Source: Raja brachyura (taxonomy: Eukaryota). Taken from it: a DNA stretch of 64,000 nucleotides. Positions 4,161-4,697 of this stretch are shown here, one piece after another. The position numbers were made by a program, and so were the translations under genes. The DNA lies in assembly GCA_963514005.1 (NCBI GenBank), contig OY740800.1, forward strand, positions 32,860,001 through 32,924,000, in the 5' to 3' direction. The number at the start of each line of letters is the position of its first letter. Position 1 is the stretch's first letter. The notes beneath the pieces were generated by a model. The model had not been told where the DNA came from, did no database searches, and saw only the letters and a program-made list of their open reading frames with translations.

Positions 4161-4697
4161 GTAGGGAGGAACTGCAGATACTGGTTTAAACCGAAGATAG
4201 ATGCACAAAAAAACTGGAGTAACTCAGCGGGTCAGGCAGCATCTGTGTGTGTGTGTGGGGGGGGGGGGGGAATTAATCACGAAAGAAAAAAAGGGGACGT
4301 TTCGGGTCGAGACCCTTCTTCTTCCGACTGAGATTCAGGAGAAATGGGAACGAGAGATATCGATGGTACTTGGGAGAAATGAATGGAAGATATGTAGAAA
4401 GCAAGGAGACCAGCTTGGAGATCAGTAAAACAGCTTGTGAATAAACGGGTAGCGGATTATCGCAGTTATACACATACGATACGATAGAACTTTATTTATC
4501 CCAGGAGGGAAATACAAGCAGGGAGACGATTGCTAAACAGTGGCCAGTGGACAGTGAGTCTGAAGAAGGGTCTCGACCCGAAACGTCACATCACCCACTC
4601 CTTCTCTCCAGAGATGCTGCCTGTCCCGCTGAGTTACTCCAGCATCTTGTGTCTACCTTCGGTGTAAACCAGCATCTGCAGTTCTTTCCTACACACA
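4161..4697. mobile_element. Penelope pLTR/hammerhead repeat, inverted pair with internal 3'UTR spacer
   Basis: Minus unit 4161-4330 and plus unit 4554-4697. Confidence 0.75.
4554..4594 (+). ncRNA. Minimal type I hammerhead ribozyme motif (Penelope-type), intact core
   Basis: CTGAAGA 4560-4566; stem II GGGT-CTCG-ACCC; GAAA 4580-4583; palindromic CG then GTC cleavage triplet; possible stem I gtgagt/ac(a)tcac. Confidence 0.72.

Follow-up and report, generated by a model that had tools for sequence, protein, structure and literature searches.

Minimal hammerhead ribozymes (min-HHRs) have been described in Penelope-like elements (PLEs) across phyla (PMC4209133). In the alignments given there, they consist of a CUGANGA box with one extra base, a G10.1-C11.1 pair, a GAAA box, a C-G palindrome without loop 3 and a final UC; they lie in the pLTRs and occur mostly as dispersed single motifs, some of them in close opposite-strand pairs. 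PLEs that code for a GIY-YIG endonuclease (EN+ PLEs) are known for insertions in which a pLTR is accompanied by an adjacent inverted 5'-truncated copy, a tail of 30-40 bp at one end and a target site duplication (TSD) (PMC8557442, PMC3846280), and self-priming on an antisense template was proposed as a model for the inverted pairs (PMC3846280). The insertion reaction of Poseidon of Anolis carolinensis (PAc) was described by Frangieh et al. 2024 (PMC11167929). According to the in vitro data reported there, both strands of the target are cleaved as well as extended, and reverse transcription is initiated internally at two positions, by which the tail is defined. The RNA used is uncut, the hammerhead cutting only with the protein and being dispensable for insertion. 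The promoter of Penelope is internal, with a downstream element RGACGTGY (PMC2377424). Metazoan non-LTR retrozymes are likewise short, non-coding, pLTR-related sequences with type I hammerheads, which occur as tandem units with canonical ribozymes and as circles (PMC7229834; bioRxiv 10.64898/2026.07.22.740005).

The rows of Table S1 and Fig. S3 of PMC4209133 include no cartilaginous fish, while retrozymes are reported in one chondrichthyan (bioRxiv 10.64898/2026.07.22.740005). Our literature search found no description of the hammerhead of the present PLE family in cartilaginous fish, although Lunse et al. 2017, Repbase and Dfam lay outside that search and may hold one. Here we analyse a window of 64,000 nucleotides from the skate Raja brachyura together with genomic samples. 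Since this kind of ribozyme was already described in 2014, little is gained by one more host lineage, and the interest is in the numbers: the family covers about 4.5% of the sampled DNA and includes a young subfamily with an uninterrupted frame. Start sites, staggered nicks and the RNA 5' end are thus readable from thousands of insertions and testable in vitro, and the part worth following is the insertion anatomy, not the ribozyme count.

The repeat unit and its parent element

Positions 4560-4587 read as CUGAAGA, an extra A, stem II of 4 bp capped by a tetraloop, then GAAA, C-G, U and C (Table 1). The preliminary description had recognized here a hammerhead core with a loopless palindromic helix III, and this is borne out. 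Both boxes are present with a NUH, as are the extra base between 9 and 10.1, the G10.1-C11.1 pair, helix II and a palindromic 15.2-16.2 without loop 3, which is C-G in all seven subfamily consensuses; the self-complementary ACGU would form helix III only as a dimer. The layout of the motif also predicts the same cut as had been expected, after C4587 (C17). Stem I, which had been left out, is limited to 2 bp (U-A or U.G, then G-C) and is predicted as a closing helix with a probability of 0.10-0.14 or less. In the copy at 4557..4694 it is extended by flanking sequence and a private 5-nt insertion at about 4588-4592 that is absent from other copies. By these sequence features, the motif is a PLE min-HHR, sharing with the set of PMC4209133 both boxes, the extra base, G10.1-C11.1, the C-G palindrome without loop 3 and the final UC, as well as its pLTR location and its mostly dispersed occurrence with some close opposite-strand pairs, while its 4-bp helix II and 2-bp helix I stand at the short end of the published range. 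The earlier assignment to the minimal type I hammerheads of PLEs therefore holds as a fit to that consensus, and the link to PLEs, then an assumption, is now shown in the genome. A search with Rfam returned no hammerhead match at the gathering score in the window, nor at E values up to 10 around the copy; its single match, to mir-338, was taken as chance.

Table 1. Coordinates of the features in the window
Feature	Positions	Strand	Basis
Hammerhead box CUGAAGA and extra A between 9 and 10.1	4560..4567	+	Sequence; consensus CUGANGAH in PMC4209133 Fig. S3
Stem II, 4 bp with 4-nt loop	4568..4579	+	Pair probability 0.85-0.99 in 4540-4620, about 0.05 in 4557-4697
GAAA box, self-complementary ACGU and C17; predicted cut after 4587	4580..4587	+	Sequence; dimer model of PMC4209133
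Stem I, 2 bp only (4558-4559 with 4588-4589)	4558..4589	+	Pair probability 0.10-0.14
Copy-specific 4-bp stem I extension (4554-4557 with 4591-4594)	4554..4594	+	Pair probability 0.95-0.97 in 4540-4620
Stub of the PLE pLTR (the unit) in its tailed form; divergence of its subfamily about 7%	4557..4694	+	Top profile match of the window (columns 2-134)
Tail (approximate), bounded by the two preferred 3' ends	4663..4694	+	3' ends cluster at columns 91-106 and 126-134
Neighbouring copy, tailed, with a simple repeat inside it and some 75 nt of PLE 3' UTR upstream	4161..4400	-	
Head-to-head pair, tailed and untailed arm	1090..1311	.	Profile, pair analysis
Head-to-head pair, tailed and untailed arm	8844..9110	.	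Profile, pair analysis
Decayed PLE fragment: GIY-YIG endonuclease end (20518-20763) and 3' UTR	20518..20923	+	tblastn; blastn to PLE loci
Head-to-head pair, untailed and tailed arm	27419..27675	.	Profile, pair analysis
Second copy with exact core; stem I 1 bp	29595..29724	-	
Head-to-head pair	35102..35377	.	Profile, pair analysis
Third copy whose core is intact (untailed, U at 17; subfamily with UUCG loop)	53326..53424	-	

At its genomic loci the unit is preceded by a pyrimidine-rich 3' UTR of 110-240 nt and, before this, by the end of a GIY-YIG endonuclease. An endonuclease end was found upstream of the unit in 68 locus matches (overlapping loci unmerged), and GIY-YIG scored above the Pfam cut-off. 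A protein search with the RT thumb recovered long open frames, among them two element copies in tandem (G000:C6), the second of which holds an uninterrupted 1203-codon RT and GIY-YIG frame with the unit before and after it. In this tandem full-length element, the unit is immediately preceded by the endonuclease stop with the 3' UTR and immediately followed by the next frame, and at locus L076 exact hammerhead cores at 956 and 5021/5163 flank the 1203-codon frame. While its Pfam scores for RT and GIY-YIG are weak and under the curated cut-offs, the motifs DKG and YIDD, a CX4CxxC linker and YIG are all present. A single frame with RT and with GIY-YIG at its C terminus, tandem-derived pLTRs, an inverted copy, a tail and a TSD are what is found in EN+ PLEs, and all of them are seen here. 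A CX2-5CxxC linker between RT and EN marks Neptune and is shared with Nematis (PMC8557442). As judged from the translated CX4CxxC linker, common to Nematis, the unit of about 135 nt is the pLTR end of a Neptune-type PLE. The seven best protein relatives come from sharks and rays. Endonuclease-end matches outnumber RT-core matches in the sample, as expected from 5' truncation; one such decayed end lies in the window at 20518..20923 (68% by tblastn to the full frame, residues 1113-1194, with E 2e-26). The seven subfamilies range in divergence from 1.4% to 22%, and it is the youngest, at 1.4%, that has the uninterrupted frame.

Three further features of these loci deserve mention. At L076 a donor-like AAG/GTATG (about 1113-1122) overlaps the first ATG of the long frame, and may be read either as a start or as an intron. 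From its first Met the frame counts about 1190 residues, longer than most relatives, with a long Pro/Thr-rich stretch before the RT (residues about 175-480). Finally, a head-to-head pair of short copies, surrounded by a duplication of about 15 bp, is found within the element's own 3' UTR (L076 4890-5115; L057 5685-5905) and is shared by the two pLTRs of the tandem element, having been carried along in a later copying round.

Ends, pairs and insertion of the short copies

A profile built from 49 distinct near-full copies was searched in the window and in 96 evenly spaced 10-kb stretches of the genome (960 kb), matching 37 fragments in the former and 448 in the latter, against none in a reversed control. 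The 3' ends of these 485 fragments are bimodal: 224 lie at profile columns 85-112 and 215 at column 120 or beyond, with only 10 between and 36 shorter, which gives two preferred 3' ends about 32 nt apart. By analogy with the described EN+ PLE insertions, the stretch between them is the PLE tail. Neighbours within 100 bp of each other are head-to-head in 103 cases, tail-to-tail in 12 and in tandem in 17, and 206 of the 485 fragments belong to head-to-head pairs. When the arms of these pairs could be classified (86 pairs, leaving 17 of the 103 unclassed), 73 pairs combined one tailed with one untailed arm where 43 are expected (P 1e-11), and 13 had two like arms. A TSD of at least 8 bp (8-17 bp) surrounds 32 of 100 pairs (control 2.3%; 3 pairs with short flanks were dropped) and 30 of 130 solo copies (control 2.9%). 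Since the TSDs enclose the whole pair, a head-to-head pair is one insertion. For the copy at 4557..4694, the flanks offer a 6-of-7 match (4551-4557 versus 4697-4703), which was not counted. Its opposite-strand neighbour at 4161..4400 is probably a separate insertion, and positions 4468-4513 between the two hold a fragment of another dispersed repeat, 93% similar to several loci.

Out of 485 fragments, 241 reach C3, the first core position: 48 of them run into the PLE UTR, 87 belong to pairs, 105 end no more than a few bases beyond it and 1 was dropped. Of the 30 solos bounded by a TSD, 20 have an insert beginning 0-8 nt upstream of C3. We favour, with a probability of roughly three in four, the reading that the unit is the pLTR end of a Neptune-type PLE and bears its hammerhead, the short copies, or stubs, being likely run-off cDNAs of uncut RNA and not working ribozymes. 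The element RNA would start a few bases before CUGA, as the DNA ends of the copies suggest. The element protein would nick both target strands 8-17 bp apart, and reverse transcription would be primed internally, at one of two start sites on each nicked strand. Priming at the 5' copy of the start sites would run off the RNA end after 100-135 nt and yield a stub, and two such run-off cDNAs joined at their ends would give a head-to-head pair with a tailed and an untailed arm, while priming at the 3' copy would produce the longer, endonuclease-bearing copies. Against this reading stands that, where solos lack UTR, each of the two bases preceding AGT still agrees with the element in 46% of cases, more than a single sharp RNA start predicts. 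The 13 pairs with two like arms and the published antisense self-priming model (PMC3846280) also speak against it. An extra 5' G from a cap gave no signal (11 of 47, background 19%).

More tentatively, we suggest that the million or so stubs could record a step of Penelope retrotransposition in vivo. The hammerhead would lie at the very start of the RNA, where three bases are left for stem I and the RNA hence stays uncut; a protein dimer would prime both nicked strands, with one start site each, and the run-off cDNAs would be joined head to head. In PLEs the stub would then correspond to a strong-stop product, each pair representing one twin-primed event. If twin priming is true, it would explain two defining traits of PLE insertions, the inverted pLTR and the tail on one side only, and hammerhead cleavage would not be on the path to insertion. 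The inverted head-to-head copy, the one-sided tail and the 8-17 bp TSD are shared with EN+ PLE insertions, including those of Adineta Pen2/Pen2a (PMC8557442; PMC3846280), from which the skate differs in that its commonest products are minimal, both arms ending at the 5' edge of the hammerhead. The skate pairs are also numerous enough for statistics, unlike those of the earlier descriptions. With PAc, as reported in PMC11167929, the skate element would share two internal start sites defining a tail about 100-135 nt past the hammerhead and the use of uncut RNA as template; its copies show no excess of ends at the cut, and no PAc reads end there. PAc differs in belonging to the Penelope/Poseidon clade, whereas the skate linker is of the Neptune/Nematis type; its frame starts inside stem II, whereas the first ATG of the long skate frame is some 160 nt downstream of C3 and past the tail.

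An alternative is that the stubs propagate themselves as a non-autonomous element comparable to SINEs or retrozymes, with an internal promoter, both start sites, transcription of their own and PLE protein supplied in trans. Stubs outnumber UTR-linked copies by about 4:1 among the copies reaching C3 and carry TSDs, a head-to-head pair is embedded in both pLTRs of a full element (L057/L076), and derivation of vertebrate non-LTR retrozymes from pLTRs has been proposed (bioRxiv 10.64898/2026.07.22.740005). Yet the stub subfamilies are the same as those of the endonuclease-linked copies, and tandem arrays are lacking, given that 17 same-strand neighbours within 100 bp occur among the 485 fragments and none of the 41 intact motifs in 1.02 Mb has an intact same-strand neighbour, a potential cis-dimer partner, within 1 kb. 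Retrozymes, as defined in PMC7229834, consist of tandem units with canonical HHRs. The skate copies are solo or inverted, keep sequence on both sides of the cut and are minimal, with no canonical helix I to provide a loop 1-loop 2 contact and no Rfam hammerhead match. We consider independent propagation unlikely.

Function of the motif and the predicted cut site

We regard it as quite unlikely that the motif is no longer a ribozyme in this lineage and is kept as a DNA internal promoter, which would comprise TCAGTCT at its 5' edge, a sequence we take to be initiator-like, and a downstream element at ACGTC. Stem I of 2 bp would fit such a role, as would folding of the whole unit, where the GAAGAAGG segment is predicted to pair elsewhere and the probability of stem II falls to 0.05 or less. 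Stem II is predicted at 0.99 in 4540-4620, at 0.05 in the whole unit and at 0.01 or less in the young subfamily, the purine-rich 5' part of the latter two pairing in the model with downstream pyrimidines. The internal promoter of Penelope, with its RGACGTGY element, lends the idea a precedent (PMC2377424). However, all core positions, the extra A, G10.1-C11.1 and the palindrome match the cross-phylum min-HHR consensus, both subfamily-level helix changes keep pairing as U.G, and a 2-bp helix I is also found in the published rows of Culex, D. virilis and Oikopleura (PMC4209133). Promoter and ribozyme roles can moreover coexist.

Many of the min-HHRs in Fig. S3 of PMC4209133 have UCAG, UUAG or UUCA a few bases before helix I, as in the skate unit, so an initiator or a 3' splice site may lie at the 5' edge of min-HHRs across phyla. 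For the skate, an intron ending at the CAG just before UCUGA, as in D. virilis, was considered because a pyrimidine tract is present and, in one subfamily, a donor-like site coincides with the stop codon. It is disfavoured, the other subfamilies having no donor and the 105 solos sharing no upstream exon. An 8-bp helix between body and tail is predicted in all seven subfamilies (unit columns 52-59 and 110-117, or about 4612-4619 and 4670-4677 in the window); it shows no covariation and is a candidate protein-binding or start-site structure.

Neither the sample nor the subfamily 24-mer scanned genome-wide revealed a trace of cut ends above background. The 5' ends in the sample show no peak at the cut, where 3 of 283 anchors fall, the same as at neighbouring columns. 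Genome-wide, the 24-mer gave 706 ends at the cut versus 318 two bases upstream and 32,423 uncut. By a hand count of the first 100 of the 706 listed, 47 are explained by small deletions, 39 of them joining the 3' arm of stem II by a 4-nt repeat and 8 lacking C17 alone, and the remaining half or so is near the control level. A class of cut ends near 1% or below lies under the resolution of this test, and its downstream control, two bases past the cut, was unusable as most of the listed matches (1,730 in all) are a sequence variant or a 1-nt deletion.

Decay of the motif was followed in several sets of copies. Among the subfamily consensuses, 1 of 14 core columns varies versus 21 of 72 others (P 0.07), which is suggestive only, and the sole variable core column is a CpG in the oldest cluster. 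In a motif-anchored set of 228 copies, the core changes less than the rest (4.7% versus 8.1%, P 2e-8), a difference that we rejected as ascertainment bias. Repeated on 34 copies found by protein, the comparison gives 21 changes in 342 core positions (6.1%) versus 147 in 2161 elsewhere (6.8%, P 0.73), and for CpGs 18 of 134 in the core (13%) versus 58 of 266 outside (22%, P 0.058). G12 and the palindrome lie in CpGs and are changed in 47-72 of about 225 copies, compared to 45-58 for non-core CpGs; G12 itself is changed in 64 of 224, as non-core CpGs are. Stem II had been said to vary while still pairing, for which the case is weak: two of the three examples alter the loop alone and the third is a one-sided change from U-A to U.G. 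Stem changes on both sides are seldom seen, in 19 of 893 pair cells, 10 of which still pair, and both helix changes at the subfamily level are one-sided wobbles. Because the core decays like the rest after insertion, the motif is likely maintained in source elements and not in the inserted copies, which appear to decay neutrally. The hammerhead is likely a ribozyme that acts slowly and depends on a dimer or on protein, selection maintaining it in the source elements alone.

Copy number and genomic setting

Fragments of the unit are found in 85 of the 96 sampled stretches, at a density of one per 1.7 kb in the window and one per 2.1 kb in the sample, which extrapolates to roughly 1.2-1.3 million fragments in 2.70 Gb. 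Intact motifs are far rarer. In the window, 7 occurrences of the two boxes at the proper spacing stand against 0.21 expected. Among its 37 fragments, 18 reach the 5' edge of the motif, 6 keep both boxes and the UH, 5 also stem II, 3 the palindromic stem III in addition and 2 the 2-bp stem I as well. The preliminary description had more than 20 copies begin with the full motif, which does not hold: the exact 28-mer occurs twice in the window and the boxes, stem II and palindrome are kept together in 3 of the 37 fragments. The sample gives 46 such copies among 448 fragments, 32 of them with a stem I of at least 2 bp. An exact genome scan for the motif with a 2-bp stem I found 61,721 matches (control 0), corresponding to about 5% of fragments and exceeding the 4,000-9,000 given for coelacanth and frog in PMC4209133. 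An estimate of one unit about every 3 kb was hence too low for fragments, but an intact motif is met only about once per 44 kb.

The large dispersed ribozyme reservoir proposed on that estimate is overstated, as 3 of 37 window copies keep the core and about 5% are intact genome-wide. It is further weakened because the core of inserted copies decays like the rest and because the many fragments lying in head-to-head pairs would likely give transcripts that fold back on themselves. Despite the 61,721 intact motifs, and a copy at 4557..4694 whose stem I happens to be extended by 4 bp and which stands some 950 bp upstream of what is likely a HIPK start codon, a working reservoir that cuts host transcripts, with trans pairing via ACGU, is very improbable, considering that about 95% of fragments have no intact motif, that G12 changes as freely as non-core CpGs, that min-HHR monomers are reported as inactive and multimers as of low activity (PMC4209133), that 8 of 9 Xenopus dimers showed no cleavage (bioRxiv 10.64898/2026.07.22.740005), that the anole HHR required the element protein (PMC11167929) and that no transcript was seen through the 4557..4694 copy in contigs of four runs, mostly guessed to be RNA, which over 3900-5800 matched the repeat and left the unique flank uncovered. 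Neither these contigs nor those of four runs compared with a young pLTR, which matched the repeat as well, gave an RNA start, end or splice joint.

The host gene is likely of the HIPK type. A short exon with an ATG and a donor site at 5638-5657 (+) is likely its first coding exon, and the start at 5638-5656 presumably matches that of HIPK2. A large kinase exon at 58997-60136 (+) is closest to HIPK2/HIPK3. If 5638-5657 is indeed the first coding exon, most copies in the window would be intronic.
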